Source: Eledone cirrhosa
Taxonomy: Eukaryota
Assembly: GCA_964016885.1 (NCBI GenBank)
Contig: OZ024764.1
Coordinates: 27,838,001-27,902,000, forward strand
Reading direction: 5' to 3'
DNA: 64,000 nt
Shown: piece after piece, positions 1 through 42,164 of the stretch
Layout of the letters: each line of letters opens with the position of its first letter
How positions within the stretch are numbered: position 1 is the stretch's first letter
Notes under the pieces: generated by a model
Databases searched by the model: none
Seen by the model: the letters and a program-made list of their open reading frames with translations, nothing else
Told to the model about the DNA's origin: nothing
Program-made: the position numbers and the translations under genes

Positions 1-174
1 TATAGATAGCAATATATATACACTAATATGTATGTACATATTTATACATATATACATATATATAGGGAGAGAGAGAGACACATGTATGTATATATATATA
101 CACATGCGTGTATGTATGTGTTTATGTACATTCTTCGGTATATATATATGAGTCACGGTTTATTACACATTGGA

Positions 175-1488
175 GACACAGAGAGAAAGAGTTGAAACGA
201 GAGGTGAGAGAGTTGAAACAAGAGAGGAGAGAGTTGAAACGAGAAAAGAGAGAGAGAGTTGAAACGAGAGGAGAGAGAGAGAGAGTTGTAACGAGAGGAG
301 AGAGAGAGAGAGAGTTGAAACGAGAGGAGAGAGAGTTGAAACGAGGAGAGAGTTGAAACAAGAGGGTGAGGGGAGAGAGGGGAGAGAGTGATGAAACGAG
401 TCGGAGATAGAGTGTGAAAGAGAGAGAGAGAGGAAGAGAGAGAGAGAGAGGAAGAGAGAGAGAGAGGAAGAGAGAGAGAGAAAGAGAGAGAGAGAGGAAG
501 AGAGAGAGAGGAAGAGGGAGAGGGGGGATGAAACAAGAGGGTGAGGGATGAAACAAGAGACAGAGGGGAGAGAAAGAGAGAGGGGAGAGAAAGAGAGAGG
601 GGAGAGAAAGAGAGAGAGAGAGAGAGAGAACGAATTGAAACAAGAGAGAGATGAAACAAGTGAGGGATTAGAGTGTTGAAACAAGAGAGAGAGGAAGAGA
701 GAGAGAGAGCAAGATGGAACGAGAGAGAGAGAGCGAGATGAAATGAGAGCGAGATGAAACGAGAGAGAGAGAGAGTGAGATGAAATGAGAGAGAGAGAGA
801 GCGAGATGAAACGAGAGAGAGAGAGAGAGAGAGAGAGCGAGATGAAATGAGACAGAGAGAGCGAGATGAAACGAAAGAGAGAGAGAGCGAGATGAAATGA
901 GAGAGTGAGTGCGAGATGAAATGAGAGAGAGTGAGAGCGACATGAAATGAGAGAGAGAGAGCGAGATGAAACGAGAGAGAGAGAGAGCGAGATGAAATGA
1001 GAGAGAGTCAGAGCGAGATGAAATGAGAGAGTGAGAGCGAGATGAAATGAGAGAGAGAGAGCGAGATGAAATGAGAGAGAGTGAGAGCGAGATGAAATGA
1101 GAGAGAGAGAGCGAGATGAAATGAGAGAGAGAGGAAACGAGACTAGAGAGCGAGATGAAACAGGAGAGAGAGAGCGAGATGAAACAGGAGAGAGAGAGCG
1201 AGATGAAACGAGAGGGAGAGAGAGATGAAATGAGAGAGCGAGAGAGAGATAGAGGGAGATGAAACGACAGAGAGAGAGACAGATGAAACGAGAGAGAGAA
1301 ATAGAGATGAAACGAGAGAGAGTGATGAAACGAGAGAGAGGAAGAGAGAGATGGAACGAGAGAGAGGAAGAGAGAGATGGAACGAGAGAGAGGAAGACAG
1401 AGATGAAATGAGAGAGAGGAAGACAGAGATGAAACGAGAGAGAGAGAGAGCGAGATGAAACGAGAGAGAGGGAGCGCGAGATGAAACT
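175..1488 (+). repeat. GA-rich complex satellite block (GATGAAAC/GTTGAAAC anchors separated by (GA)n), seed-state cassette
   Basis: Purine-rich tract of ~20-26-bp subunits such as GCGAGATGAAA(C/T)GAGAGAGAGA; positions 1-1488 are colinear with ~14798-16066. Confidence 0.95.
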
Positions 1489-1830
1489 CTGTCATGTAAT
1501 GTTATGGACATATCTGCCCCTGGGGCTAATAATTGTCATGTAATGTTATGGTCATCTCTGCCCCTGTGGTTAATAATTCTGTCATGTAATGTTATGGTCA
1601 TGTCTGCACCTGTGGCTAATAAATCTGTCATGTAATGTTATGGTCATCTCTGCCCCTGTGGCTAATAATTCTGTCATGTAATGTTATGGACATCTCTGCC
1701 CCTGTGGCTAATAATTCTGACATGTAATGTTATGGACATCTCTGCCCCGGTGGCTAATAATTCTGACATGTAATGTTATGGACATCTCTGCCCCTGTGGC
1801 TAATAATTCTGACATGTAATGTTATGGACA
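1489..1830 (+). repeat. 46-bp minisatellite block, ~7.5 copies
   Basis: Monomer G(T/A)CATGTAATGTTATGGACATCTCTGCCCCTGTGGCTAATAATTCT; the first monomer is a 44-bp variant. Confidence 0.97.
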
Positions 1831-1850
1831 TTGCTATCTTGTTTCATCTC

Positions 1851-3447
1851 AAACAGCAAAGTGCAAGAAGAGAAAATTGTCGTGTACAGAACTGTGAATT
1901 AAGATTTAGAAGAGGATCAGATATGAGCTGCTCTAATTTACCAACTAGTAATGATAGCTGTTGTTTTGTGGGGGATTGAGGGCACACCACCTGTACAAAG
2001 AGATATTATCATCTTTCCTAAAGACCATCCTCCTCAGAAAATACCACATAATGCATGCCACTTGGACCTCATGACCGACCGATAATGGTGAATTTTGGTG
2101 GCATAGTGCCATGGAGAGGAATGTAGGACCTGTGTTTGCAATAGACTGACAATGCAGGAGTATTACATATACTGTATAGCATATAGAGGAGGATTTAGTG
2201 CGATATATAGGGCAGGTAAATTATTTTAGCAGTATTTAGTGGATGCCTATATGAAAGTAGAGGGATGCAGGCTTCAATATTTGAGGAACAATCAAGCCCA
2301 ATTGTGAGTGGATGAGTATAATGGTTTAATGAATTATCTAAACAGATGATAACACTGAGCCTTAAAAAATGAAGACAAGATAAGAAACAGAGAAGACATT
2401 GACAGAATCGTGTCAGCAGAAATACCTGCATTGGAAGATGATCCAGTACTACATGAGCAGGTTTAAAAGTTTATGATCCACAGGCCATGTGGTTCTGGAA
2501 ACCCTTTTCCCCCATTTATACAAAATGGATTTTTCAAAAAGAACTATCCAAAAACCTACAGAAGGGAAACATTATTGAACCTAAATGGATACCCAGAGTA
2601 CAGGAGGTGCAAGACAGGAACTGCAGTGTAAATTGGATGACATTCAGTAGATAACAGGAATGTTATGCCATTTAATGCCTTTTTGCTTAAGAAATATTGT
2701 GCACATATTAATGTTGAAGTTTGCGCTTCTGTAAAAAGTGTCAAGTACCTCTTTAAATATGTTACATGGGGCATGATTGTACATCTATAGAAGTAACGAA
2801 TAATGCATTACCTAATGAGGCTCAGAACCAACACAACCATGATGAAATAAGAACCTATCTTTGTTGCAGGTATGTGTCTCAGCCAGAAGCAGTGTCGTGT
2901 CTCTCGGAATTTAAGCTTCATGGTACATCACATACAGTATACAGCCTAGCCACACACCTGGAGAACAAACAGAGTTTACTTTCAAAGAGGCAATGCTCAG
3001 GTTGTGGTAGAAATGCAGGGACCCTTGCTGCCTGGTTCAAGCTAAATAAACTTGCTTACACCTTCTGGGATGCCGCCTCACTAACTCCAATTATAAGCAG
3101 GATCAATAATAATGCTTCTATGGAATATTTCAATCCAGAACAGATTATGTAATGGCACAAGATTAGAAGTAGTAGAACTGCATAAACATTTTATCAAAGC
3201 TTCTCATATCTATGGTCCTTTGATGGGCAGGTGTGTTTTGATCCCAAGACTGAAGTTATCCCCCAGTGGTGCCAACATCCCTTTTACTTTGGAAAGACCC
3301 CAGTTTCCATTAAGACTGTCATATGCCATGACAATCAACAAGAACCATGGTCAAATACATGATAAAGTGGGTCTGTTCCTCCCTGAGCAAGTATTTAACC
3401 CTGGACAATTGTATGTTGCTTTTTCAAGAGTTCACAGACAGATGTAA
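1851..3447 (+). pseudogene. Helitron Rep/Hel remnant, 3' part (internally deleted, frameshifted)
   Basis: Translated motifs: NLPTSND, AGKLF*QYLVDAYMKVE, IDRIVSAEIP, MIHRPCG, GYPEYRR, DNRNVMPFN, AHINVEVCASVKSVKYLFKYV..GHD (Rep Y2 motif, ~2743), DEIRTYLCCRYVSQPEA, then Pif1 helicase LCNGTRL, QFPLRLSYAMTINKNHGQ, VFNPGQLYVAFSRV. Confidence 0.93.
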
Positions 3448-3641
3448 AAATTAATCCTAGCAAACCCCCACCACTCCTACAACTGTTAGCTGTTAGCCCA
3501 CCCCCAGCACCACCCAACCTCCGTTCTAGTCCCACCGTTAGAACCAATGCTGCTTACCCTGCCTCTTTTACTAGTTCACTCCGTCGCTCGAATTTCAAAG
3601 CTGGCCCTCTACACTTGGTCGTTGCCAGCTCACCACCTGGT

Positions 3642-3779
3642 TGTGCTCTCTGTGTCCGCACTAGCCGGTACCTAAACACAATAAAATGTCACCTGTGCTA
3701 CCAAAACTACCACAGGAACTCTGTCGGCATCAGCAAGGCTCAAGCCGAAAGGCTTCAATACTAGACCTGTAATCAGGGC
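3642..3779 (+). pseudogene. Decayed PHD-finger coding fragment (C4HC3), preceded by an in-frame Pro/Ser-rich linker from ~3465
   Basis: Hand translation CALCVRTSRYLNTIKCHLCYQNYHRNSVGISKAQAERLQY*TCNQG; three single-base changes (TCT>TGT, TAG>TGG, GGC>TGC) restore HxxC and WxCxxC. Confidence 0.6.
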
Positions 3780-4017
3780 CACTTTACCTCCGACGACCAG
3801 CTTTCTACCGAGTGTGTGTTGATGGAGGGGACATGAGACCAGCAAAGTCCTAGGAGTAGAGACTAGTAAATAATAAACGGTCCTAGCTATGTTAAGAATA
3901 TATATAAGAAAAATGTTCTATACATTTAAGAAGACAAGAGAAATAAATATTTACCTCTTTCATGTAGGTAATATAGCGGTGTTATAAAAGTATAATAACT
4001 GATGCAGGTAGTTTGTT

Positions 4018-4277
4018 TCAAACTATAACACATATAACTCTATCAGTGAAGCCCTTTAGTATAGGTCAACTGGGAAACTATAACACATATAACCCTATCA
4101 GTGAAGCCCTCTGGGAAACTATAACACATATAACTCTATCAGTGAAGCCCTTTAGTATAGGTCAACTGGGAAACTATAACACATATAACCCTATCAGTGA
4201 AGTCCTTTAGTATAGGTCAACTGGGAAATTATAACACATATAACCCTATCAGTGAAGTCCTTTAGTATAGGTCAACT
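4018..4277. repeat. 55-bp VNTR, ~5 copies
   Basis: GGGAAACTATAACACATATAACCCTATCAGTGAAGTCCTTTAGTATAGGTCAACT, including one shortened monomer. Confidence 0.95.
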
Positions 4278-4329
4278 AACAGAAGTATTACGGGTATGGA
4301 AAAAATTCTAAATAAGCCTACAACAGTCA

Positions 4330-4397
4330 TTGCGGGCCACTCTGACTGGTCAGGTGGGCTCGATTGTGGCCCGCGGGCCGCCTGTTGCACGCCCCTC
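4330..4397. mobile_element. hAT-like (Charlie-type) non-autonomous element terminus
   Basis: GCGGGCC...TGGCCCGCGGGCCGCCTGTTGCACGCCCCT resembles typical hAT MITE right ends; no partner TIR or TSD identified. Confidence 0.4.
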
Positions 4398-4423
4398 CTT
4401 TAGACAGAATATCTATCACTGTT

Positions 4424-4639
4424 AAGTAATACTGTGATCTGTCGGCTAACTACATTTTCCAGCCTGTGGCGTTTGGGGGAGTCGGGATACTGACTGCGAG
4501 ATTCCTATCTTCACTGGCGGCTAGCCTGACGAAGGTGACTGGTGAAGCTCGTGAGGGCACTTGGTTGTTCCAGCTCCTCAGCCTCGCCATCGCCCGAGGT
4601 AACGCTGCAGACGTGCTGGCTTGCCTAAAAAATCATTAG
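4424..4639 (+). mobile_element. CRE-clade (RLE-type) non-LTR retrotransposon, ORF C-terminal fragment 1
   Basis: Translation YCDLSANYIFQPVAFGGVGILTARFLSSLAASLTKVTGEAREGTWLFQLLSLAIARGNAADVLACLKNH* matches the CRE C-terminal pattern Y.F.PVA.ET.G...REx.FLFQRLSLAIQRGNA. Confidence 0.75.
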
Positions 4640-4722
4640 AGAGGTTTCCCAGTGCTCCTCGCGATACTGTTATCTTTTGCTCTAGTAGCAGCTCGTTTGT
4701 CCACCCCTTTCGCCTGCCTTTG

Positions 4723-4905
4723 GTTGTATGTCGTCCTAGATGTGTGTATTACCTGCTTGTGTGTTGTATGTGGTCCTAGATGTGTGTATTACCTGCTTAT
4801 GTGGTCCTAGATGTATGTATTACCTGCTGGTGTGTTGTATGTGGTCCCAGATGTGTGGATTACCTGTTTTTGTGTTGTATGTGGTCCCAAATGTGTGTGC
4901 TACCC
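4723..4905. repeat. ~40-bp minisatellite, ~4.5 copies
   Basis: GTTGTATGTGGTCCTAGATGTGTGTATTACCTGCTTGTGT tandem variants. Confidence 0.85.
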
Positions 4906-5618
4906 GCTTCTGTGATTTGTTGTTTCTTCTTTCTCTCTTCCGAGAAACAATCCTGTATTTTTTTAATCTATTCCATGCGTTAAGTAATTAGCAGCAACAA
5001 CAAACTGATTTTCAGTTGTAAAAAGAATCTTTAAACCTTCACCATTTACATTAACACATACCATACGTTGTCCCAGCCACAAATAAACAGTAAAAAAAAC
5101 TTACTTTGCGGTTAAATTCGTCACAATTAAAAGAAAAATATTTCTAACACGTTTCTAGACAACACCAAGTTTACACCTTCAATATCCGGTAAAAGTAAAA
5201 ACAAATTCTGGAGACATTTAACGAAACGAAACTATGTAAAGAAAAACGAAAATTAAACGAAGACAAATAGTAAATTTTAATTTTTATTAAATAAAATACC
5301 AGTAATTCACTGCAGTAGATTTAATCAACTTTACTCTCTCTGCACGAAAGAAGAAAAAAATTCCTGACTTAGTGCTTAATATATAGAGAGGGGGAGAGTT
5401 TGGTGTTACTTCATATAGAGAGGGGTATTGGAAGAGAGTGCCGTGTAGTAGATATAGAGAGGGAGAGAGTGTGTGCTAATTGATATAAAGAGGGGGATTT
5501 GCACGCCCCCCCCCCCGCCTAGAAAAATTCTGAAATGCTTCGACCTCCCTGTACATATATATATATATATAGTATACACACACAGACATATATATAGTAA
5601 ATAAATGTGTGTGTGTAT

Positions 5619-5800
5619 CAGTGGTCCCCAAACTTTTCTGTTCCACACCCCTCCTCTAAAATATGTTTATGTTCCCCTTTAATATAAAAACAATCCGAGT
5701 ATTCTGAAAGTATTATTACTGTAATATAAAGTAGAAACCCTTTATTTAAACAAAGCTACGATGCAGCGATGATCAAAACAAACTTCTCGTAGGTGCTGCC
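5619..5800 (+). mobile_element. hAT-like terminus continuing into the outer part of the foldback arm
   Basis: CAGTGGTCCCCAAACTTTT start; downstream sequence matches 45554 onward and the reverse complement of ~8295-8440. Confidence 0.55.
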
Positions 5801-6269
5801 AAGCGGGGAAAAGTGGATGTATAATGATGATGATATATATATATATGCCCCACCCTTGCAAACAGGGAAAAGCAGACGTAAAATGAAAATGATGATATAT
5901 ATATAGATAGATAGATATGTACATATATATATTTATACTTATACGTCATGGTGGCTACAGGTGCCAAGAGGAAGAAGCCGGTCAAATCCTCTGATATTTG
6001 TTTATCTTCCTTTCCTTTGTATATATATATATAGTATGTGTGTGTGTGTATGAAGATGTATGACCCCTAGCAAGCCAAACTACAGTTACTCCCCAACATG
6101 GAGAGCAAATTAAAACATTACCTGTTAGAGACGAACGTGAAATGATTTGTTAGTGAACTACCGGTGTCACAGTAATTATGTTACCGGTGTAACTATTTCT
6201 GTTTACCTTATTTTTAAATGACACTCCTATATTAGTTTAGTGACCTTTCAATTCAAATAAATTCTTGAT

Positions 6270-6680
6270 GATGATTGAACTCGCATCGGAGTAGCCCAAC
6301 GCCTTGGCCTCCGCGTGTGTGAGCCACATAAATGCTCTCAACGACATAGTGAGAAGAAGCCTGGACGCAGCTGAATTTCCATCTCAACTGGAGTCAGCAG
6401 GCTTAGGCCGCGGAGATGGCAAGCACCCCGAGGGAATCACCCTCTTCCCATTCGAAGGAGGTAGATCCACAAACCCCAGCATCGCTGCCCGTCTCGCAGA
6501 TGAACATAAAATAAACAAATTCCGGTGTTTGTCCTGGAGCCTCTTCTAAGCACCAGCCGCCGTCGAGACCCCGGGCCAACTTGGACCCATTACAGCCGAG
6601 CTCCTCCGCAACATCGCAGTGTCTGTGGCCCGTCTGAGGATGGAGTCCCACGAGGTTGGATGCCTGTTGCAGCAGGTGTT
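6270..6680 (+). mobile_element. CRE-clade non-LTR retrotransposon, RLE-domain fragment 2
   Basis: RIGVAQRLGLRVCEPHKC / ALNDIVRRSLDAAEFPSQLESAGLGRGDGKHPEGITLFPFEGG (RHxxLND...E..GL.R.DGKRPDG.T RLE motif) / AAVETPGQLGPITAELL. Confidence 0.8.
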
Positions 6681-6805
6681 ACTGTCCTTACATATATATA
6701 CGTAAATGTTCCCTTGACTGCTATTTCTAGCATATATTAATAGACACTTTAGAAACAGCAGCTAAAAATCAAGAAACAACAGTGTGTGTCTGTATATATA
6801 TACAC

Positions 6806-6806
<1 letters not shown>

Positions 6807-6872
<66 letters not shown>

Positions 6873-6956
6873 AGCCAAAGACACGCACACACGAACATAC
6901 ACATACACACAGGTGTATGTCTGCGTGTATGTATATATATGTGTGTGTCTTTTTGT

Positions 6957-7046
<90 letters not shown>
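6807..7046. repeat. (GA)n, (TC)n and (TA)n microsatellite cluster
   Basis: (GA)n 6807-6871; (TC)n(TA)n 6957-7046. Confidence 0.95.
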
Positions 7047-7051
<5 letters not shown>

Positions 7052-7074
7052 GTCAGTGATCCCCCTCGCAACCT

Positions 7075-8440
7075 TTAATTAAACAAACCTGCGATGAGGC
7101 GATGATCAAAATAAACACCAAAGTATAAACAAACAGCCCATAGGTGCTGCCGGATACACGATAACATGTGTAGACGAAGTAAAACTTTTATTACTGTAAT
7201 ATAAAGTAGAAACCCTTTATTTAAACAAAGCTGCGATGCAGCGATGATCAAAACAAACTTCAAATAACATGTGTATACGAAGTGTATCTGGAAGCTTGGT
7301 CGTATTATATGACTTTCAAATTGACCCCTATTATATTCAAATTATCCCCTGTGGGGCGTGCACCCCACGTTGAGAATCCCTCATAAATAAATATATGTGA
7401 GTGTGTTGCTATGACTGCTATTTCTAGCAGGTTTACTGCAGTCCTGTAGACGCACAACAAAAACCGGAAGTGGCAGCCATTAAAAAACTTTGGCTTAAAA
7501 TCAGGCAAAAGTTTTTTAACAATTTGCCAAGAAAGATAACTCTTGTCTTACTTAATCGCAAAAATCGAGGCAAAAATTTTGTGGGTGTACAGTTTGTTTG
7601 GTGTATTTGACTGCTATTTCTAGCATGTATGGACACTTTAGAAATAGCAGCGAAAAACGGAAAACAGCAGAAAGAAGGACACACACCTATATATATATAT
7701 ATATATACCAGCTATACACTCACCCATACATATATATATATACCAGCTATACACACACCCATATCTACGTATAGGTGTGTGTGCGCGCGTGTATGTATAT
7801 ATAAATATATATATTTAAATGTATATATCTGTGCATATATATATGTATATATATATACGTGTGTGTCCTTCTTTCTTATGTTTCCCGTGTTTCGCTGCTA
7901 TTTCTAAAGTGTCCATATATGCTAGAAATAGCAGTCAAATACACCAAACAAACTGCACACCCGCAAAATTTTTTGCCTCGATTTTTGCGATTAAGTAAGA
8001 CAAGAGTTATCTTTCTTGGCAAATTGTTAAAAAACTTTTGCCTGATTTTAAGCCAAAGTTTTTTAATGGCTGCCACTTCCGGTTTTTGTTGTGCGTCTAC
8101 AGGACTGCAGTAAACCTGCTAGAAATAGCAGTCATAGCAACACACTCACATATATTTATTTATGAGGGATTCTCAACGTGGGGTGCACGCCCCACAGGGG
8201 ATAATTTGAATATAATAGGGGTCAATTTGAAAGTCATATAATACGACCCAACTCCCTGTTACACTTCGTATACACATGTTATCGTGTATCTGGCAGCACC
8301 TGCGAGAAGTTTGTTTACATTTTGGGGTTTGCTTTGATGATCGCTGCATCTCAGCTTTGTTTAAATAAAGGGTTTCTACTTTATATTACAGTAATAACAC
8401 TTTTACAAGACTCGGATTGTTTTTATATTAAAGGGGGACA
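7075..8440. mobile_element. Foldback element: ~500-bp inverted arms (7188-7686 / 7859-8397) around a ~170-bp TA/CA-rich spacer
   Basis: Arms are near-exact reverse complements; the ORF track shows the identical 67-aa peptide at 7305..7508(-) and 8038..8241(+). Confidence 0.9.
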
Positions 8441-8540
8441 TGTTTTTTAAACTCTGAACTCAGCATCTTTCTGTTGTTCTCCGGGATTCTAGCAAAGTAT
8501 AAAAAAAAATATATATATATAGATATATATATATATATCT

Positions 8541-8720
8541 GGCAGTCAACCTCAGACTCGAAAAAGCCGCCGCTAATCGTGATCGTTGGGGTTATAATTC
8601 GACTAAAGTGCTTCCACTGGGCACCATTAGCTGGTTGTGATCATTGGAGAATTCTTTCTGCGCTGAAAGAGCCTAGGACTAAAAGATATATATATAGATG
8701 TCGAAACGGCAGTAGCACAG
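8541..8720 (+). mobile_element. Possible Penelope-like element 3' remnant (GIY-YIG tail plus degenerate hammerhead-like motif)
   Basis: Frameshifted AVNLRLEK(PPL)NRD resembles the PLE endonuclease tail EA..IR.EKP.LNRD; CTGAAAGA...CGAAACGGCAGTAGC at 8663-8716; second copy at ~47465-47645. Confidence 0.35.
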
Positions 8721-9077
8721 CCGTTGGGGTCCTGAATATTTTCACATCTATATATGTGTGTGTATTCTGCGACATTTATAATTACATAAGCAAGCATATT
8801 TGAATAACAAAATTTGAGGTTTAAATACTTTATTTTTTACCAATAACATAGAGAAAGGCATGAACAACACCACATGTTAATTACTTTAATATTGAAAGTA
8901 GGCTTATAAATATTAAAAAAGCAGATGCTTGTATCTTTCATGGTGGTCTGGTGGGTGATACCAGAGATGGTGGTAGTCATGGTTTCGGTTTCAATCCTGG
9001 TCATGGGTTACATATAAGGTCTCATTTTTCTTTCTTTCAGTTTTCTTCTTATCTCTAGATATAAATATATATACATA

Positions 9078-9185
9078 AGGTAATTTGGTAGAATTGTTAG
9101 AACATCAGATAGAATTCTTTGCAGTATTTTTCCAGTTCTTTACTCTGAGTTCAACTTTACCTTTCTTCCATTCGGTGTCGATAAG
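9078..9185 (+). mobile_element. Degenerate tRNA-SINE fragment (same broad family as the minus-strand copies)
   Basis: TGGTAGAATTGTTAG (A-box-like)...CTCTGAGTTCAA...CTTTACCTTTCTTCCATTCGGTGTCGATAA; copies at ~11783-11890 and ~48008-48115. Confidence 0.55.
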
Positions 9186-10004
9186 TCTTGAATATGTCTA
9201 ACGTAGCAATAACTGGAGCTACTTAACCAAGTTTTGCCAACCTAGTCGATGTCACCTACTGGTTGGCGATTTAAACTGTTGGCTGGGACAATGACCAACT
9301 AATCAGTCAGATTCCAACTCACTATGTCTGGCATATATTTTATATTTTATATTTGAATGAAGTTCTGTAAGTAACCTGGTGGCTTAGATGGCAATACTGC
9401 TCGAATAGATGGCTTCTATTATGAAGTTATAAGTTCATTCCCTATCCAGGATTGTAGAATTAATTTTATTTAGTTATTATTTAATCAATTGTTTTAACAA
9501 ACAAATTATATCTATAAAACGCCAAATATAGTGAGTTCAAATCTGACTGACATGCATGGTATATATTTATGTTTCATTATACAGCGACACAATACACAGG
9601 AACTTATAAAGATATGTATATATTGTCCAGGAGTTTCGAGTTTAGTGGGAATTGGTACAACTCTCAATTGGAGCTAGTCCCTGCAAGATCAGCATAAATA
9701 ATGTTATACCTTTTCATGAAATCTTGCACACCCGATATTTTATACATGATTATTTAAAGGTGAACAAAAACCAAAGAACATTGTGCAGCATTTCTCAACC
9801 TTTCTACCCATGTCGATCTCTTGAAATAGTTTTTATGTCTCAGGGAAGCCCTGCATAAAATATACTTTTTCTATCTCTAGAGCAGTGGTTCCCAAATCGT
9901 GTGCTGCGAGATGAAACAAGATGAGCTGCAAAAGACTAAGATTAAGTTTTAAGATGTGAAAAATATAAAACTGAAATTTCATATAAAAGTTCAAATATAG
10001 CTAC

Positions 10005-10235
10005 AGCCACAAACCTAGGCTCCACACCCCGCAATGCAGAGGATAGTAAGATAGTACCAAGGCCTGACTCACCTCTTCCACTCCATTGAGACCTCTGCCA
10101 TACTTGGTCCCTGTACTGCTGATTTCCTCCATAAAGTCGGGAGGAAAGACAACAGGAGCCTCATGAGGAGGGGCAACTATTGTAGCAGGTGTCTCTGGCC
10201 TTGTTCCGAGGTAACGCTTTTACGTTTCTTCCACA
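10005..10235 (+). mobile_element. CRE-clade non-LTR retrotransposon, C-terminal fragment 3
   Basis: NAEDSK..YQGLTHLFHSIETSAILGPCTADFLHKVGRK...L*QVSLALFRGNAFTFL; copies at ~12710-12940 and ~48935-49165. Confidence 0.6.
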
Positions 10236-10470
10236 GGTTGCGGCTGAGGGACCACTTAGACTGGGGTGAAGTGTCTGTCCCTCCCCCGACTTCTTACTTC
10301 TTTTTTTTTCTCATTTTCATTTTCTTTTCTCTTCTTGCTTATCTCTGCTATACCACGGCATCAAAAACATATATAATATGTGTATGTATGGTATAGGTGT
10401 ATTTATATTTAGGATAGTTATCAAAGGTAAATAGACTGGTTGGAGCAATAACAGTCTTGTTTATGTATAT

Positions 10471-10527
<57 letters not shown>

Positions 10528-10628
10528 TGTTCTTGTATTTCCATAGAAAAGGTAAAGAAAAGAAGAATGCTATATATATTGTACAGAGCTATTTAATTAC
10601 ATAATAAACAACAGAATATAATTATTCC

Positions 10629-10880
10629 ATGCAAATAGACTTAGACTGGAAAACATTCAGACAGAGAAGAATGGATAATGAGCGTCGTAAGAGAAATTGC
10701 CAACAATTAATATTAATGGAAATGTAGAAGGATTTCATATTAGTGATATGAATGTTTCGTGTGATCACTGTGGAGCTTTGAAATTTAGAAATGAAAATTG
10801 TAACTGTTGTAATAAAGGAAAGGTTATGTTGCCACCATTGCAAATATACCCTGAGAGACTGAGAAATCTCTTTGAAAGAG
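10629..10880 (+). pseudogene. Helitron N-terminal Zn-finger-like region, truncated (alpha type)
   Basis: CDHCGALKFRNENCNCCNKGKVMLPPLQIYPERLRNLF; ends in a snap-back hairpin. Confidence 0.85.
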
Positions 10881-10904
10881 ATTTCTCAGTCTCTCAGGGT
10901 ATAT
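10844..10904. other. Perfect palindrome, 30-bp arms with a 1-nt loop
   Basis: ATATACCCTGAGAGACTGAGAAATCTCTTT-G-AAAGAGATTTCTCAGTCTCTCAGGGTATAT. Confidence 0.97.
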
Positions 10905-14030: not shown

Positions 14031-14035
14031 ACAAA

Positions 14036-14070
<35 letters not shown>

Positions 14071-14965: not shown

Positions 14966-15214
14966 CAGAGAGAGAGAGTTGAAACGAGAGGTGAGAGAGT
15001 TGAAACAAGAGAGGAGATGGTTGAAACACGAGGAGAGAGAGAGAGTGGAAACGAGAGGAGAGAGAGAGAGTTGAAACGAGGAGAGAGTTGAAACAAGAGG
15101 GTGAGGGGAGAGAGGAAGAGAGAGAGAGAGAGGAAGAGAGAGAGAGGGGAAGAGAGAGAGGGGGAGAGAAGGGGATGAAACAACAGAGAGAGGGGAGAGA
15201 AAGAGAGAGGGGAT

Positions 15215-32600: not shown

Positions 32601-35600
32601 CATCTCGCGCTCTCTCTCTCTCGTTTCATCTCGCGCTCTCTCTCTTCCTCTCTCTCGTTTCATCTCGCTCTCTCTCTCTCTCGTTTCACCTCTGTCTTTC
32701 ATCTCTCTCTTCCTCTCTCTCGTTCCATCTCTCTCTTCCTCTCTCTCGTTTCATCTCTATCTCCCTCCTTTCATCTGTCTCTCTCTCTGTCGTTTCATCT
32801 CGCGCTCTCTCTCTCTCATTTCATCTCGCGCTCTCTCTCTCTCGTTTCATCTCGCTCTCTCTCTCTCTCGTTACATCTCTGTCTTCCTCTCTCTCGTTCC
32901 ATCTCTCTCTTCCTCTCTCTCTTCCTCTCTCTCGTTTCATCTCTATCTCCCTCGTTTCATCTCTCTCTCCCTCTCGTTTCATCTTGCTCTCTCTCTCCTG
33001 TTTCATCTCGCTCTCTACTCTCGTTTCCTCTCTCTCGTTTCCTCTCTGTCTCGTTCCATCCCGCTCTCTCTCTCTCTCATTACATCTCGCTCTCTCTGTC
33101 TCGTTTCATCTCGCTCTCTCTCTCTCTCGTTTCATCTCGCTCTCACTCTCTCGTTTCATCTCGCGTTTCATCTCACTCTCCCTGTCTCATTTCATCTCGC
33201 TCTCTCTCTCTCTTCCTCTCTCTCTCTTGTTTCAACACTCTAATCCCTCACTTGTTTTATCTCTCTCTAATCCCTCACTTGTTTCATCTCTCTCAGAATT
33301 ATTAGCCACAGGGGCAGAGATGTCCATAACATTACATGTCAGAATTATTAGCCACAGGGCAGAGATGTCCATAACATTACATGTCAGAATTATTAGCCAC
33401 AGGGGCAGAGATGTCCATAACATTACATGTCAGAATTATTAGCCACAGGGGCGGAGACGTCCATAACATTACATGACAGAATTATTAGCCACAGGGGCAG
33501 AGATGACCATAACATTACATGACAATTATTAGCCACAGGGGCAGATATATCAATAACATTACATGATAGAGTTTCATCTCGCGCTCTCTCTCTCTCGTTT
33601 CATCTTGCGCTCTCTCTCTCTCGTTTCATCTTGCTCTCTCTCTCTCTCGTTTCATCTCTGTATTCCTCTCTCTCGTTCCATCTCTCTATTCCTCTCTCTC
33701 GTTCCATCTCTCTCATCCTCTCTCTCGTTTTATCTGTATCTCCCTCCTTCAATCTGTCTCTCTCTCTGTCGTTTCATCTCGTGCTCTCTCTGTCTCGTTT
33801 CATCTCGCGCTCTCTCTGTCTCGTTTCATCTCGCTCTCTCTCTCTCTCTCGTTTCATCTCTGTCTTCCTCTCTCTCGTTCCATCTCTCTCTTCCTCTTTC
33901 TCGTTCCATCTCTCTCTTCCTCTCTCTCGTTTCATTTCTATCTCCCTCGTTTCATCTCTCTCTCGCTCTCTCGTTTCATCTCTCTCTCCCTCTCGTTTCA
34001 TCTCGCTCTCTACTCTCGTTTCCTCTCTCTCGTTTCCTCTCTGTCTCGTTCCATCCCGCTCTCTCTCTCTCTCATTACATCTCGCTCTCTCTGTCTCGTT
34101 TCATCTCGCTCTCTCTCGCTCTCGTTTCATCTCGCTCTCACTCTCTCGTTTCATCTCGCTTCTCTCACTATTGCGTTTCATCTCGCTCTCCCTGTCTCAT
34201 TTCATCTCGCTCTCTCTCTCTCTTCCTCTCTCTTGTTTCAACACCCTAATCCCTCACTTGTTTTATCTCTCTCTAATCCCTCACTTGTTTCATCTCTCTC
34301 AGAATTATTAGCCACAGGGGCAGAGATGTCCATAACATTACATGTCAGAGTTATTAGCCACAGGGGCAGAGATGTCCATAACGTTACATGACAATTATTA
34401 GCCCCAAGGGCAGATATGTCCATAACATTACATGACAGAGTTTCATCTCACGCTCTCTCTCTCTCGTTTCATCTCGCGCTCTCTCTCTTCCTCTCTCTCG
34501 TTTCATCTCGCTCTCTCTCTCTCTCGTTTCACCTCTGTCTTCCATCTCTCTCTTCCTCTCTCTCGTTCCATCTCACTCTTCCTCTCTCTCATTTCATCTC
34601 TCTCTCTCGTTTCATCTCTATCTCTCTCTCTCGTTTCATCTGTCTCTCTCTCTGTCGTTTCATCTCCCTCTATCTCTCTCTCCCTCTCGTTTCATCTCGC
34701 TCTCTCTCTCCTGTTTCATCTCGCTCTCTCTCTCTCCTGTTTCATCTCGCTCTCTACTCTCGTTTCCTCTCTCTCTCCCTCCTGTTTCATCTCGCTCTCT
34801 CTCTCTCGTTTCATCTCGCTCTCACTCTCTCGTTTCATCTCGCTCTCTCTCTGTCTCGTTTCATCTCGCTCTCTCTCTCTCATTTCATCTCGCTCTCTCT
34901 CTCTCATTTCATCTCGCTCTCTCTCTCTCGTTTCATCTCGCTCTCACACTCTCGTTTCATCTCGCTCTCACTCTCTCGTTTCATCTCGCTCTCCCTGTCT
35001 CGTTTCATCTCGCTCACACTCTCTCATTTCATCTCGCTCTCTCTCTCTCTCTTCTTTCAACACTCTAATCCCTCACTTGTTTCATCTCTCTCAGAATTAT
35101 TAGCCACAGGGGCAGAGATGACCATAACATTACATGTCAGAATTATTAGCCACAGGGGCAGAGATGTCCATAACATTACATGTCAGAATCATTAGCCACA
35201 GGGGCAGAGATGTCCATAACATTACATGACAGAATTATTAGCCACAGGGGCAGAGATGACCATAACATTACATGACAATTATTAGCCACAGGGGCAGATA
35301 TGTCAATAACATTACATGACAGAGTTTCATCTCGCGCTCTCTCTCTCTCTCGTTTCATCTTGCGCTCTCTCTCTCTCTCGTTTCCTCTCGCTCTCTCTCT
35401 CTCTCGTTTCATCTCTGTCTTCCTCTCTCTCGTTCCATCTCTCTCTTCCTCTCTCTCGTTCCATCTCTCTCTTCCTCTCTCTCGTTTCATCTGTCTCTCT
35501 CTCTGTCGTTTCATCTCGCGCTCTCTCTCTCTCGTTTCATCTCGCGCTCTCTCTCTCTCATTTCATCTCGCTCTCTCTCTCTCTCGTTTCATCTCTGTCT

Positions 35601-38600
35601 TCCTCTCTCTCTTCCTCTCTCTCGTTCCATCTCTCTCTTCCTCTCTCTCGTTTCATCTCTATCTCCCTCGTTTCATCTCTCTCTCGCTCTCTCGTTTCAT
35701 CTCTCTCTCCCTCTCGTCTCATCTCGCTCTCTCTCTTCTGTTTCATCTCGCTCTCTACTCTCGTCTCCTCTCTGTCGTTTCCTCTCTGTCTCGTTTCATC
35801 TCGCTCTCCCTGTCTCATTTCATCTCGCTCTCTCTCTCTCTCTTCCTCTCTGTCTCTTGTTTCAACACTCTAATCCCTCACTTGTTTTATCTCTCTCTAA
35901 TCCCTCACTTGTTTCATCTCTCTCAGAATTATTAGCCACAGGGGCAGAGATGTCCATAACATTACATGTCAGAGTTATTAGCCACAGGGGCAGAGATGTC
36001 CATAACGTTACATGACAATTATTAGCCCCAAGGGCAGATATGTCTATAACATTACATGACAGAGTTTCATCTCGCGCTCTCTCTCTCTCGTTTCATCTCG
36101 CGCTCTCTCTCTTCCTCTCTCTCGTTTCATCTCGCTCTCTCTCTCTCTCGTTTCACCTCTGTCTTCCATCTCTCTCTTCCTCTCTCACGTTCCATGTCAC
36201 TATTCCTCTCTCTCATTTCATCTCTCTCTCTCGTTTCATCTCTATCTCTCTCTCTCGTTTCATCTGTCTCTCTCTCTGTCGTTTCATCTCCCTCTATCTC
36301 TCTCTCCCTCTCGTTTCATCTCGCTCTCTCTCTCCTGTTTCATCTCGCTCTCTCTCTCTCCTGTTTCATCTCGCTCTCTACTCTCGTTTCCTCTCTCTCT
36401 CGCTCCTGTTTCATCTCGCTCTCTCTCTCTCGTTTCATCTCGCTCTCACTCTCTCGTTTCATCTCGCTCTCTCTCTGTCTCGTTTCATCTCGCTCTCTCT
36501 CTCTCATTTCATCTCGCTCTCTCTCTCTCATTTCATCTCGCTCTCTCTCTCTCGTTTCATCTCGCTCTCACTCTCTCGTTTCATCTCGCTCTCACTCTCT
36601 CGTTTCATCTCGCTCTCCCTGTCTCGTTTCATCTCGCTCACACTCTCTCATTTCATCTCGCTCTCTCTCTCTTCTTTCAACACTCTAATCCCTCACTTGT
36701 TTCATCTCTCTCAGAATTATTAGCCACAGGGGCAGAGATGACCATAACATTACATGTCAGAATTATTAGCCACAGGGGCAGAGATGTCCATAACATTACA
36801 TGTCAGAATCATTAGCCACCAGGACAGAGATGTCCATAACATTACATGACAGAATTATTAGCCACAGGGGCAGAGATGACCATAACATTACATGACAATT
36901 ATTAGCCACAGGGGCAGATATGTCAATAACATTACATGACAGAGTTTCATCTCGCGCTCTCTCTCTCTCTCGTTTCATCTTGCGCTCTCTCTCTCGTTTC
37001 CTCTCGCTCTCTCTCTCTCTCGTTTCATCTCTGTCTTCCTCTCTCTCGTTCCATCTCTCTCTTCCTCTCTCTCGTTCCATCTCTCTCTTCCTCTCTCTCG
37101 TTTCATCTGTCTCTCTCTCTGTCGTTTCATCTCGCGCTCTCTCTCTCTCTCTCGTTTCATCTCGCGCTCTCTCTCTCTCATTTCATCTCGCTCTCTCTCT
37201 CTCGCGTTTCATCTCTGTCTTCCTCTCTCTCTTCCTCTCTCTCGTTCCATCTCTCTCTTCCTCTCTCTCGTTTCATCTCTATCTCCCTCGTTTCATCTCT
37301 CTCTCGCTCTCTCGTTTCATCTCTCTCTCCCTCTCGTTTCATCTCGCTCTCTCTCTTCTGTTTCATCTCGCTCTCTACTCTCGTCTCCTCTCTGTCGTTT
37401 CCTCTCTGTCTCGTTTCATCTCGCTCTCCCTGTCTCATTTCATCTCGCTCTCTCTCTCTCTCTTCCTCTCTGTCTCTTGTTTCAACACTCTAATCCCTCA
37501 CTTGTTTTATCTCTCTCTAATCCCTCACTTGTTTCATCTCTCTTAGAATTATTAGCCACAGGGGCAGAGATGTCCATAACATTACATGTCAGAATTATTA
37601 GCCACAGGGCAGAGATGTCCATAACATTACATGTCAGAATTATTAGCCACAGGGGCAGAGATGTCCATAACATTACATGACAGAGTTTCATCTCGCTCTC
37701 TCTCTCTCTCGTTTCATCAGTGTCTTCCTCTCTCTCGTTCCATCTCTCTCTCGCTCTCTCTCGTTCCATCTCTATCTTCATCTCTCTCGTTTCATCTCTA
37801 TCTCCCTCCTTTCATCTGTCTCTCTCTCTGTCGTTTCATCTCGCGCTCTCTCTCTCTCGTTTCATCTCGCGCTCTCTCTCTCTTTCTCTCTCTCGTTTCA
37901 TCTCTATCTCCCTCGTTTCATCTGTCTCTCGCTCTCTCGTTTCATCTCTCTCTCCCTCTCGTTTCATCTCGCTCTCTACTCTCGTTTCCTCTCTCTCGCG
38001 TTCCATCCCGCTCTCTCTCTCTCTCATTACATCTCGCTCTCTCTGTCTCGTTTCATCTCGCTCTCTCTCTCTCTCGTTTCATCTCGCTCTCACTCTCTCG
38101 TTTCATCTCGCTTCTCTCACTCTCGTGTTTCATCTCGCTCTCCCTGTCTCATTTCATCTCGCTCTCTCTCTCTCTTCCTCTCTCTCTCTTGTTTCAACAC
38201 TCTAATCCCTCACTTGTTTTATCTCTCTCTAATCCCTCACTTGTTTCATCTCTCTCAGAATTATTAGCCACAGGGGCAGAGATGTCCATAACATTACATG
38301 TCAGAATTATTAGCCACAGGGCAGAGATGTCCATAACATTACATGTCAGAATTATTAGCCACAGGGGCAGAGATGTCCATAACATTACATGACAGAATTA
38401 TTAGCCACAGGGGCAGAGATGTCCATAACATTACATGTCAGAATTATTAGACACAGGGCAGAGATGTCCATAACATTACATGTCAGAATTATTAGCCACA
38501 GGGGCAGAGATGTCCATAACATTACATGTCAGAATTATTAGCCACAGGGGCCGAGATGTCCATAACATTACATGAAAGAATTATTAGCCACAGGGGCAGA

Positions 38601-39630
38601 GATGTCCATAACATTACATGACAGAATTATTAGCCACAGGGGCAGAGATGTCCATAACATTACATGACAATTATTAGCCCCAAGGGCAGATATGTCCATA
38701 ACATTACATGACAGAGTTTCATCTGGCGCTCTCTCTCTTCCTCTCTCTCGTTTCATCTCTGTCTTCCTCTCTCTCGTTCCATCTCTCTCTTCCTCTCGCT
38801 CGTTCCATCTCTCTCTTCCTCTCTCTCGTTTCATCTCTATCTCCCTCCTTTCATCTGTCTCTCTCTCTGTCGTTTCATCTCGCGCTCTCTCTCTCTCTCG
38901 TTTCATCTCGCGCTCTCTCTCTCTCGTTTCATCTCTCTCTCTCTCTCGTTTCATCTCTGTCTTCCTCTCTCTCGTTCCATCTCTCTCTTCCTCTCTCTCG
39001 TTTCATCTCTATCTCCCTCGTTTCATCTCTCTCTCCCTCTCGTTTCATCTCGCTCTCTCTCTCCTGTTTCATCTCGCTCTCTACTCTCGTTTCCTCACTC
39101 TCGTTTCATCTCTCTCTCGTTTCCTCTCTGTCTCGTTCCATCCCGCTCTCTCTCTCTCTCATTACATCTCGCTCTCTCTGTCTCGTTTCATCTCGCTCTC
39201 TCTCTCTCTCGTTTCATCTCGCTCTCACTCTCTCGTTTCATCTCGCTTCTCTCACTCTCGCGTTTCATCTCGCTCTCCCTGTCTCATTTCATCTCGCTCT
39301 CTCTCTCTCTTCCTCTCTCTCTCTTGTTTCAACACTCTAATCCCTCACTTGTTTTATCTCTCTCTAATCCCCCACGTGTTTCATCTCTCTCAGAATTATT
39401 AGCCACAGGGGCAGAGATGTCCATAACATTACATGTCAGAATTATTAGCCACAGGGCAGAGATGTCCATAACATTACATGTCAGAATTATTAACCACAGG
39501 GGCAGAGATGTCCATAACATAACATGACAGAATTATTAGCCACAGGGGCAGAGATGTCCATAACATTACATGACAGAATTATTAGCCACAGGGGCAGATA
39601 TGTCCATAACATTACATGACAGAGTTTCAT
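29683..39630 (-). repeat. Composite higher-order satellite, inverted arm: 11 CT blocks (~0.5-0.75 kb) alternating with blocks of 2-10 46-mers
   Basis: Reverse-complement monomer AGAATTATTAGCCACAGGGGCAGAGATGTCCATAACATTACATG(T/A)C; near-exact dimer duplication ~34299-35922 / 35923-37542. Confidence 0.95.
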
Positions 39631-39671
39631 CTGGTTGGAGTAATAACAGTCTTGTTTATGTATATACACAC

Positions 39672-39704
<33 letters not shown>

Positions 39705-39809
39705 TGTTTGTTCTTGTATTTCTATAGAAAAGGTAAAGAAAAGAAGAATGCTCTATGTATTGTACAGAGCTATTTAATTACATAATAAACAACAGAATAT
39801 AATTATTCC

Positions 39810-42164
39810 ATGCATATAGACTTAGAATGGAAAACATTCAGACAGAGAAGAATGGATAATGAGCGTCGTAAGAGAAATTGGCCAACAATTAATATTAATG
39901 GAAATCTAGAAGAATTTCATATTAGTGATATGAATGTTTCGTGTGATCACTGTGAAGCTTTGAAATTTAGAAATGAAAATTGTAACTGTTGTAATAAAGG
40001 AAAGGTTGTGTTGCCTCCATTGCAAATATACCCCGAGAGACTGAGAAATCTCTTTGAAAGAGGCCAGGAAGCAGTTGATTTCACAGAAACGTCTGCAATT
40101 AAAACTACATTTATTTCACTTCATTTGGTGTTACCACCCGGCAGAGGCCCGTATAGCTTTCATATTCAGGGTCAAACATATCACTACACGCCCATCTCTG
40201 TAACCTGCAGAAAATACACCACAATATGGCCAGTTATATATTATTGATGGGAACGAAGGTGTGTAGCACAGATTGGAAGTACGACCAAATAATTGTTTCT
40301 GGCACAAGGCCAGCAATTACTGGTACTTTATTCTATCGACCTCATAAGGATGAAAACAAAGTCAACCTTGGAGGGATTTGAACCCAGAACGTAAAGGGCC
40401 ATAACCCTATGCTGCAAAGCATGGTGTCTGACGCTCTACCGATACTGCCAATCCACCGCCCTAGTACCAACAAATAATGAGTGCTCACCACAAAAAATGG
40501 CTATGATAAGAGAGGTGTTGCGTGATGTAATCCATATGTCGAAGTGTACAATACAATGCATGGCATCAAACAGCAAAGTGCAAGAAGAGAAAATTGTTGT
40601 GTACAGAACTGTAAATTAAGATTTAGAAGAGGATCAGATATGAGCTGCTATAATTTACCAACTAGTAATGATAGCTGTTGTTTTGTGGGGGATTGAGGGC
40701 AGACCACCTGTACAAAGAGATATTATCATCTTTCCTAAAGACCATCCTCCTCAGAATATATCACATAATTCATGCCACTTGGACCTCATGACCAACCCAT
40801 AATGGTGAATTTTGGTGGCATAGTGACATGGAGAGGAATGCAGGACCTGTGTTTGCAATAGACTGACAATGCAGGAGTATTACATATACAGTATAGCATA
40901 TAGAGGAGGATTTAGTGCGATATATAGGGCAGGTAAATTATTTTAGCAGTATTTAGTGGAAGCCTATATGAAAGTAGGGGGATGCAGGCTTCAATATTTG
41001 AGGAACAATCAAGCCCAATTGTGAGTGGATGAGTATAATGGTTTAATGAATTATCTAAACAGATGATAACACTGAGCCTTAAGAAATGAAGACAAGATAA
41101 GAAACAGAGAAGACATTGACAGAATCGTGTCAGCAGAAATACCTGCATTGGAAGATGATCAAGTACTACATGAGCAGGTTTAAAAGTTTATGATACACGG
41201 GCCATGTGGTTCTGGAAACCCTTTTCCCCCATTTATACAAAATGGATTTTTCCAAAAGAACTATCCAAAAACCTACAGAAGGGAAACATTATTGAACCTA
41301 AATGGATACCCAGAGTACAGGAGGTGCAAGACAGGAACTGCAGTGCAAATTGGATGACATTCAGTAGATAACAGGAATGTTGTGCCATTTAATGCCTTTT
41401 TGCTTAAGAAATATTGTGCATATATTAATGTTGAAGTTTGCGCTTCTGTAAAAAGTGTCAAGTACCTCTTTAAATATGTTACATGGGGCATGATTGTACA
41501 TCTATAGAAGTAACGAATAATGCATTACCTAATGAGGCTCAGAACCAACACAACCATGATGAAATAAGAACCTATCTTTGTTGCAGGTATGTGTCTCAGC
41601 CAGAAGCAGTGTCGTGTCTGTCCGAATTTAAGCTTCATGGTACATCACATACATTATACAGCCTAGCCACACACCTGGAGAACAAACAGAGTTTACTTTC
41701 AAAGAGGCAATGCTCAGGTTGTGGTAGAAATGCAGGGACCCTTGCTGCCTGGTTCAAGCTAAATGAACTTGCTTACACCTTCTGGGATGCCGCCTCACAA
41801 ACTCCAATTAAAAGCAGGATCAATAATAATGCTTCTATGGAATATTTCAATCCAGAACAGATTATGTAATGGCACAAGATTAGAAGTAGTAGAACTGCAT
41901 AAACATTTTATCAAAGCTTCTCATATCTATGGTCCTTTGATGGGCAGGTGTGTTTTGATCCCAAGACTGAAGTTAGCCCCCAGTGGTGCCAACATCCTTT
42001 TTACTTCGGAAAGACCCCAGTTTCCATTAAGACTGTCATATGCCATGACAATCAACAAGAACCATGGTCAAATACATGATAAAGTGGGTCTGTTCCTCCC
42101 TGAGCAAGTATTTAACCCTGGACAATTGTATGTTGCTTTTTCAAGAGTTCACAGACAGATGTAA
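39810..42164 (+). pseudogene. Most complete Helitron Rep/Hel remnant (alpha type, empty cassette site at 40567/40568)
   Basis: Continuous N-terminal Zn-finger-like region, N-terminal conserved domain, Rep Y2 motif, and Pif1 C-terminus LTPSGMPPHKLQLKAGSIIMLLWN...LCNGTRL...AMTINKNHGQ...GQLYVAFSRV; many stops and frameshifts. Confidence 0.95.
40294..40462 (-). mobile_element. tRNA-SINE inserted in the Helitron ORF (same insertion as 13756 and 49981)
   Basis: A and B boxes on the minus strand; TSD 40278-40293 / 40463-40478. Confidence 0.85.

Follow-up and report, generated by a model that had tools for sequence, protein, structure and literature searches.

The window, a stretch of 64,000 nucleotides of the Eledone cirrhosa genome, contains several copies of a degraded Helitron, some of them interrupted by a composite satellite of GA-rich blocks and 46-bp monomers (features are on the + strand unless stated). 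The sequence itself looks octopod, judging from a SINE and, weakly, from its proteins. The right half of the Helitron RepHel fossil is found at 1851–3441 (copy 1), where it corresponds to residues 341–867 and 1367–1498 of an intact relative, P0001 (tblastn), and at 40568–42481 (copy 2), where it ends in a candidate hairpin and CTAG (42459–42481). P0001, which carries PF14214 and PF05970, is 77% identical. Homology to RepHel (Rep plus PIF1 helicase) was also seen with Helraiser (7LCC; E-values of 3.4e-37, 4.5e-11 and 2.9e-07 for three fragments). In a Pfam scan, Pif1_2B was matched by one of eight short fragments (E 5.3e-14) and the seven others gave no match. This host Helitron is a broken fossil, unable to transpose: it has stops, frameshifts and a SINE-like piece inside, and residues 868–1366 are missing. 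As for its 3′ end, a 5-bp hairpin lies 5 nt before the CTAG at 42478, and the next base is A instead of T. An Rfam scan of 1850–14970 gave no match. The satellite was not brought in by the Helitron, which is fossil DNA within a tandem macro-repeat of about 10 kb; contig depth in one run puts this macro-repeat at roughly tens to 100 copies, a rough figure that is not a copy number.

One insertion site in a Helitron fossil

A sequence-only reading of this locus had placed an empty Helitron join at 40567/8, left insert junctions at 14030 and 50255 and a right junction at 1850/1, and had proposed a single insertion into the Helitron. The junctions are confirmed, and the single insertion is supported. 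ATGCATGGCATC is found three times in the window (14019, 40556 and 50244) and AAACAGCAAAG twice (1851 and 40568). The empty, left (14030/1 and 50255/6) and right junctions all meet at a single base, between RepHel codons 340 and 341, and the right junction of the short insert occurs once in the window. The junction flanks are colinear over kilobases (1849–4261 versus 40566–43008, 96.8%), far beyond chance. The empty form (40556–40580) is the ancestral state, because its reading frame runs through (residues 303–512, compared with the intact P0001) and because contig 10 of run X2, from another organism (organism B), spans it (40373–40671). This contig comparison involved short-read contigs only, on the flank interval 39710–42700. 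A contig of run X1 (40545–40732) has 23 letters left of the empty site and was not scored as a bridge; run X3 (share 0.07) gave diverged pieces only, among the matches listed. Loose contig ends at 40567/8, a measure of filled against empty units, were absent among the 24 matches listed, from a set dominated by SINE matches with 1141 more, which has no bearing either way.

The left flank of copy 2 (11699–14030), which includes a SINE-like piece (13778–13918), ends in RepHel residue 340. The left flank of copy 3 (47926–50255) differs from it at 24 of 2330 sites and has the same 30-bp deletion. The segment absent from these two insert-bearing flanks is kept in the last 937 bp of the empty unit's left flank (39631–40567), which differs from the copy 2 flank at 21 of 832 sites. 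Since the array joins these last 937 bp of an adjoining empty unit, the “empty” site belongs to a tandem neighbour that has been truncated. The three states, taken in the earlier reading for alleles side by side, are paralogous units of the tandem macro-repeat. Origin of the empty site by precise excision was also considered and is rejected, as its left flank is 2.5% off the insert-bearing flanks and keeps the 30-bp segment missing there. A possible 3-bp duplication, TCA, had also been pointed out at the insert junctions. The 3-nt overlap is present, but it is weak evidence of target duplication, because an ambiguity of at least 3 nt arises in 7.0% of 200,000 random draws of ends.

Two head-to-head satellite arrays

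In copy 2, the insert starts with a leader (14031–14966) made of (TA)15, AT-rich DNA and a SINE-like piece (14646–14769). It is followed by a satellite array of 24.7 kb, with 20 GA blocks and 21 46-mer blocks in total. The forward arm (14967–29682, 14.7 kb) consists of nine units, each with a GA block and a 46-mer block. The array then folds back with a one-base loop at 29682 into an inverted arm (29683–39630, − strand, 9.9 kb) of 12 46-mer blocks and 11 GA blocks. The inversion centre (29670–29694, no strand assigned) reads GGCTAATAATTC-T-GATTTATTAGCC and coincides to the base with the boundary of the higher-order unit. Copy 3 has its leader at 50256–50966 and then lacks 728 bp relative to copy 2, the missing equivalent being 14748–15475 (leader and GA head). 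Its forward arm (50967–60308, 9.3 kb) has five units, and its inverted arm (60309–64000, − strand), at least 3.7 kb long and cut by the window end, starts from the same centre as in copy 2. The 46-mer anchors of copy 2 are 96 forward and 0 reverse before 29682, then 0 forward and 61 reverse; the corresponding values around 60308 in copy 3 are 51 and 0, then 0 and 21.

The earlier reading had described a segment of about 1.4 kb amplified some 20-fold. The count agrees with the blocks found; the uniform length does not, as units range from 1.24 to 2.18 kb in the forward arm and from 0.71 to 1.14 kb in the inverted arm. The later, higher-order character of this amplification is supported, the unit of GA block plus 46-mer block starting at a 27-mer, at about 15267. 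Its junction joins the end of a 46-mer to this 27-mer (TTCTGA/GAGAGATG, also written TTCTGA/TTTATTAG).

Between left and right arms, 9 of 230 sites differ; between the right arms of copies 2 and 3, 4 of 280 do. A G head with GAGCTAGA marks all 12 internal forward GA blocks and none of the 15 inverted ones, and TAAAAC is found in 11 of these 15 and in none of the 12 forward blocks. An identical 31-nt inversion centre is present in both expanded arrays; it is explained by recent duplication and is therefore no evidence of selection. The predicted fold of this centre (z = −22) merely restates the palindrome. The order of 46-mer variants is not mirrored on the two sides of the centre, so that a fold-back of the present forward arm is only one candidate, the joining of two arrays fitting as well. 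A second fold-back (10844–11701, no strand assigned) has 30-bp arms around a 1-nt loop at 10874; after it come nine palindromic units of 89 bp that are themselves head-to-head, and the region is bordered by two copies of the left flank. Its repair signature matches that of the array centre, at the same locus.

The short insert and its origin

Copy 1 enters the window with a leader tail (1–176) matching 14797–14963, with three substitutions in its first 147 nt. It continues with a single GA block (177–1487) that has one 27-mer and a C head, then a run of 7.5 46-mers (1488–1831, TRF), and finally a 19-nt filler at the right junction (1832–1850, no strand assigned), an inverted copy of local sequence. 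The colinearity previously given as 1–1488 with 14798–16066 stands, with coordinates shifted by one (1–1487 and 14797–16066; 68 substitutions over 1229 aligned sites). The proposed cassette of about 2.6 kb, with one GA block and 7.5 46-mers, likewise fits, its length being 2,616 bp if the leader is as in copy 2, the left end of copy 1 lying outside the window.

Whether the short cassette could be a deletion derivative had been raised in the earlier reading, and variant analysis indicates that it is not a deletion product of the present arrays. Copy 1 is not derived from the present arms, because it lacks the markers of both (no G head, GAGCTAGA or TAAAAC) and branches basally, outside both arm clusters of a k-mer NJ tree (a tree with no support values, of units that recombine). 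It has an undeleted first monomer and a single 27-mer, and its last 46-mer continues beyond the higher-order breakpoint. It is also a sister lineage rather than a frozen ancestor, because it has a long branch of its own (242 of 571 GA 20-mers are private, 0.42, the highest share, the next being 0.40); the word “seed” fits the branching order. The 21T monomer is shared by copy 1 with seven of 16 inverted blocks and none of 14 forward blocks, and five 14-mers are common to copy 1 and the first units only. In an alignment of the GA module, which took in 18 of 33 extracts, copy 1 is 5 of 267 sites away from internal forward units, and 19 and 15 sites away from the first units of copies 2 and 3, about five of these differences reflecting a misaligned start. 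Nearness to internal forward units is also expected from a chimera of first and later units.

In our view, the composite GA-rich and 46-bp satellite, in its two head-to-head arms, probably grew in place from about 2.6 kb of captured DNA, through break repair, unequal exchange and one fold-back. The starting point is the macro-repeat unit that holds the RepHel fossil, with a reading frame left uninterrupted in the empty unit. Microhomology-type repair may then have inserted ordinary genomic DNA between codons 340 and 341, namely the leader, one GA block and a few 46-mers, leaving behind the templated inverted 19-nt filler. The filled unit would have been duplicated, copy 1 staying short. In a lineage other than that of copy 1, a 2-nt GA microhomology may have produced the observed junction of a 46-mer end (TTCTGA) with the 27-mer, creating a higher-order unit of 0.7–2.2 kb that then multiplied. 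A fold-back or template switch at TC-T-GA would account for the head-to-head array, each arm homogenising apart afterwards. The join through CTGG would result from a deletion that removed the right end of the insert and about one macro-unit, and fused the inverted arm with the empty unit that follows. Duplication of the whole block of about 36 kb would finally have given copy 3, unit order being altered later in both copies. Function is unnecessary in this explanation, and the array would be heterochromatic DNA changing by recombination.

The variant data are also compatible with an earlier array, expanded or even inverted by then, having collapsed to the short insert, whose filler would be a remnant of the inverted arm. 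Indeed, TCTTGTTTCATCTC, 14 nt of the filler, is found on the + strand in both inverted arms (30545 and 62381). Copy 1 is a mosaic, with a module nearest to internal forward units and 46-mer variants like those of the inverted-arm type-B blocks, and long palindromes are prone to deletion. However, the filler matches the flank (15 nt at 9908/12613) and the insert itself (13 nt) equally well, besides 14 nt in the inverted arm and 10 nt in the leader; its best match of 15 nt was reached in one of 2000 shuffled controls. Together with the absence of every marker fixed in internal forward units and of the common inverted-arm marker, the undeleted first monomer, the single 27-mer and the share of private 20-mers, this makes such a collapse rather unlikely.

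Another possibility is that the higher-order satellite pre-existed at a donor locus and that the insertion copied its edge, a new array being founded here without the satellite being born here. The leader resembles ordinary intergenic DNA with a SINE-like piece, and the 46-mer variants common to all units predate the higher-order junction. Divergence is about 1–4% among units and 1.0–2.5% among flanks, thus not clearly lower among units, so that a higher-order array older than the insertion fits these values. On the other hand, the higher-order unit can be derived wholly within the short insert via the 2-nt GA overlap, and the last 46-mer of copy 1 runs beyond the breakpoint. This donor origin looks unlikely.

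It is very unlikely that the insert is itself a non-autonomous Helitron or Helentron (HINE, DINE-1-like), or a TIR element of a kind with 3-bp target duplication (CACTA, PIF/Harbinger), bearing repeats. Helitrons start with 5′-TC and insert between A and T without target duplication, and a boundary set before TCA would indeed give such a start at such a target. Nevertheless, the TCA overlap occurs by chance in 7% of draws, there is one insertion site in the window, and the insert has no CTRR in its last 30 nt, no GC hairpin and no poly-A. Its 80-nt ends, the left one being that of copy 2, share no inverted match longer than 5 nt, in line with the initial statement that TIRs are lacking. The suggested analogy with DINE-1-like, Helitron-borne satellites fails, since the repeats interrupt the Helitron coding region and are not its central repeats, and no HINE ends were found among those tested.

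A single cassette whose internal 1.4-kb segment was amplified head-to-tail, with both ends kept, was the initial model. It fits the left junction, the leader, the unit boundaries and the 20 GA blocks. But 9.9 of the 24.7 kb (about 40%) are inverted, so that the cassette is not otherwise unchanged. Nor is the array a simple expansion: its right end, and with it the short insert's right junction, is lost from copy 2, the array ending through CTGG at 39631, the equivalent of 13141, 937 bp from the empty site. The model is refuted for copy 2, may hold for copies outside the window, and is highly improbable as a whole. An assembly or chimeric-read artefact (fold-back reads) is hardly credible: the contigs of run X4 lack some of the window's letters, but the centre is present twice, each time beside different units, the arms differ by fixed markers and the copies differ by 1–2.5%.

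Related systems and significance

The closest known arrangement is that of the Tribolium macro-dyad satellites, HiFi-checked opposite multi-kb subarrays that occupy putative (peri)centromeric domains, at thousands of sites; according to the Tribolium paper, macro-dyad arrays had been documented in Tribolium only, and a literature search on such arrays listed Tribolium papers and others that cite one of them. The present locus similarly has multi-kb subarrays in opposite orientation (14.7 + 9.9 kb; 9.3 + at least 3.7 kb), a single inversion site that is conserved, unit numbers that vary and a dyad that moves as a cassette in a larger repeat. It differs by its two copies, its composite GA and 46-bp unit, its 1-nt-loop centre, its non-insect host, and the survival of the empty site and the one-unit insert.

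Rsp-like insertions into 1.688 clusters of the Drosophila simulans clade (10.1101/846238) offer a parallel: an insertion with microhomology founded a new cluster, one junction being conserved and the other variable, with filler, and the cluster later expanded locally and moved as a higher-order unit. In that case the donor is known and the insertion went into another satellite; the present insertion lies in a Helitron fossil, and its array is inverted internally. Maize CRM1TR and CRM4TR (PMC3648361) share a dated array birth in the last few million years, illegitimate recombination and local homogenisation, but their monomers derive from the transposon itself, the unit here being foreign to the Helitron. 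Inversions and microhomology repair are also described in satellite regions of maize CEN10 (PMC4806543). Cg_HINE/DINE-1 (PMC7492417) provides a mollusc example of tandem repeats with Helitron-superfamily DNA, and the same empty-site logic. It has central repeats between subterminal inverted repeats, a 3′ palindrome, one orientation and many dispersed sites, features not seen here: one target site lies in the window, and a HINE test gave only a 5-bp AT-rich stem in the last 46-mer and no 3′ palindrome. The macro-unit of about 10 kb is a patchwork of TE remnants, like the “transposon graveyards” satellites (PMC12628747). The inversion centre, being a short inverted sequence, could prime a fold-back, as in the inverted duplications formed by fold-back in humans (PMC3907307); the human cases keep a spacer between arms, in contrast to the one-base loop found here, where the arms later expanded as satellite. 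Neither this repeat nor an octopus satellitome was described among the papers listed by the literature searches; repeat libraries in supplements (e.g. PMC13282606) may hold the 46-mer.

The locus bears on two questions: how satellite arrays start, and whether a head-to-head arrangement is kept for function or is a by-product of repair. In the Tribolium work, a possible function is seen in the conservation of inversion sites. At the present locus, such a site is explained by one repair event followed by duplication, and earlier states survive next to the array; nothing in this calls for a new type of element or biochemical function. The locus likely records the growth and folding back of a satellite within a few million years. 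A broader scenario, tentative and more doubtful than not, would make it a macro-dyad origin outside Tribolium. A TCTGA 46-mer variant at the edge of the GA polypurine tract would give both the higher-order junction and the fold-back, and the inversion would yield two separately homogenised arms. The cassette of about 36 kb would then spread in a macro-repeat of megabase scale and limited to the species. This would be a nascent domain, heterochromatic or centromeric, with an age of a few million years and with its empty and one-unit states alongside. With the genome in hand, the order of insertion, higher-order unit, inversion and block duplication is testable across copies and close species, and the locus provides a direct test of inversion as a barrier to homogenisation.

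Junctions and states of the Helitron site

An exact search of the window gives three occurrences of the left half ATGCATGGCATC of the interrupted Helitron and two of the right half AAACAGCAAAG, the halves being united solely at 40567/8. The left half passes into the leader, i.e., the 5′ part of the insert, at 14030 and at 50255. The right half is entered from foreign DNA at 1850, the right junction of a short insert (copy 1) visible from window base 1 rightward, its left end lying upstream. The flanks are colinear over kilobases around these junctions, whose coordinates in the sequence-only reading prove correct to within one base by the same search.

To either side of the site lie stop-free frames with similarity to the transposase of Helraiser (E 2.9e-07, 4.5e-11, and 3.4e-37). 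Aligned to P0001, an intact RepHel relative (1530 aa, 77% identity over the helicase fragment), the filled copies are interrupted between aa 340 and 341. For the empty copy, a single alignment runs unbroken over aa 303–512. Since this RepHel frame is continuous and one contig from organism B (40373–40671) crosses the empty site, the empty state is ancestral. The Helitron is a fossil, with stops, frameshifts, and a SINE-like piece inside, and lacks aa 868–1366. The host is probably an octopus: the best named protein match came from Octopus bimaculoides (63%), other matches being at least as good. SINE-like pieces, which we take to be similar to an Octopus SINE, are found at 13778–13918, 14646–14769, 40316–40457, and 50003–50143, and their depth is very high in each of the four runs compared.

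Because the fossil (~2.7 kb) sits in a larger repeating unit, the three states are paralogous units of a tandem macro-repeat. This macro-unit spans 9,688 bp at 40568–50255 and 12,180 bp at 1851–14030, of which 2,697 bp are an internal duplication; its remainder consists of minisatellites and MITE-like fold-backs. A 55-bp minisatellite with a 41-bp variant (4020–4277; 42712–43285, the second tract being longer) is a third repeat whose length varies between copies. The arrangement of the fold-back elements (7179–8406, 44501–47358) differs between the two macro-units, and 5499–7332 is replaced or missing in the second. The stretch 6230–6690, present in the first only, is by eye a candidate decayed non-LTR retroelement end.

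The segment 39710–42700 is present, whole or in part, in 7 of 11 listed runs, and contigs of four runs were compared with it. In the run of organism D (X4), near-identical contigs reach depths of 665–1049, versus 6–15 for diverged contigs and window-private letters. This contrast points roughly to tens to ~100 copies of the macro-unit; contig depth, here for a library of unspecified type, does not amount to a copy number. Depth is 2–12 in organisms A and B. Because the X4 majority letters that differ from the flanks of the empty site (L′, 39631–40567, and the right Helitron half) at 12 sites sit in the window's other copies at 12/12, wherever the position is present, these flanks represent a diverged member of the macro-repeat.

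Array architecture

The copy 2 array (14967–39630) runs forward and then inverted. Its forward arm holds nine units, each a GA block plus a 46-mer block, with a period of 1.24–2.18 kb; the inverted arm comprises 12 46-mer blocks and 11 GA blocks (0.71–1.14 kb). The strand switch at 29682, which recurs at 60308, forms an almost perfect palindrome around a loop of one base, and coincides with TTCTGA, the usual joint between a 46-mer block and the next GA block, where the two overlap by 2 nt (GA). The last inverted-arm unit is a CATCTGG variant, and CTGG links the array to the flank at the equivalent of 13141. L′ differs by 2.5% from the insert-bearing flanks and retains a 30-bp segment without counterpart in either; we read the array's right end as probably fused to the next, empty unit by deletion. 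Copies 2 and 3 (the latter from 50256 to the window end) are unlike in number and order of units, although their flanks and leader differ at only 29 of 3,008 sites, so that the units turn over fast. In both expanded arrays, the first unit (14960–16066; 50967–51620) diverges most from the others, an edge effect. Two inverted-arm blocks (c2m6 and c2m8) carry marks common to the first unit and the short insert.

The sequence-only reading had named DINE-1-related repeats as known Helitron-borne satellites; the present locus is very unlikely to be of this HINE/DINE-1 type (PMC7492417), as the insert has none of the HINE end features looked for. Its architecture is that of the macro-dyads of Tribolium, which according to the paper describing them (PMC13081366) are documented in Tribolium alone, and the manner of working is that of Rsp-like cluster founding in Drosophila (10.1101/846238). 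Inversions inside satellite regions are known as such, e.g., from maize CEN10 (PMC4806543), and short arrays within retrotransposons have been shown to give rise to satellites (PMC7004042). No earlier description of this repeat was found in the part of the literature covered by the searches.

Origin of the short insert

Copy 1 carries no arm-specific marker: the forward-arm G head and GAGCTAGA occur in 12/12 internal forward blocks and 0/15 inverted ones, and the inverted-arm TAAAAC in 11/15 inverted and 0/12 forward blocks. It has one 27-mer (the sequence at which the higher-order unit starts), retains 10 bp that copies 2 and 3 have lost from their first monomer, and shares five 14-mers with first units only; its 21T monomers recur in 7/16 inverted and 0/14 forward blocks. 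A neighbor-joining tree (30 units, 1,966 informative 14-mers, without support values) places it outside both arm clusters. Copy 1 is thereby probably an early-branching one-unit copy. The missing markers and the tree favor the seed previously proposed and speak against a collapse product of an earlier array, which we consider rather unlikely, whereas the GA module, only 5/267 sites from internal forward units and more distant from first units, and the presence in inverted arms of 14 nt of the 19-nt filler at the right junction (1832–1850) argue for such a collapse. Read inverted, the filler matches a hAT-like end in the flank over 15 nt and the leader over 10 nt, lengths attained by 1/2000 and 3.6% of shuffles, respectively. 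GA-block units share 16 nt, GCGAGATGAAACAAGA, with this presumed hAT-like end (9883–9940, 12588–12645, and 48813–48870), from which the GA core or the filler may derive unless the 16-nt match is due to chance.

Proposed mechanism and age

The junctions themselves are directly visible, and we infer the repair routes and the order of steps. DNA would have been captured by microhomology-type repair, followed by formation of a higher-order junction, fold-back, separate homogenization of each arm, a deletion reaching into the next unit, and duplication of a block. A second fold-back, at 10874, has perfect 30-bp arms and a 1-nt loop. After it, within 10844–11701, come nine units of 89 bp in head-to-head arrangement, every one of them a double palindrome (the best centre lies at 11239, arm match 94%). 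This array returns to the flank via CAT, yields a 1.9-kb direct duplication, and is not in copy 3; it is a second, small dyad array bearing the same repair signature as the main one in a single locus.

Scaled by the rate implied in PMC13282606 (JC 0.09 = 25 My), ages would be ~1.3 My for copies 2 and 3, ~2.6 My for copy 1 versus the forward arm, and ~3.5 My for L′ versus the insert-bearing left flank, these values relying on few sites and an assumed octopus host. The series of states is real and unusually legible, but its history is more complex than was first proposed.
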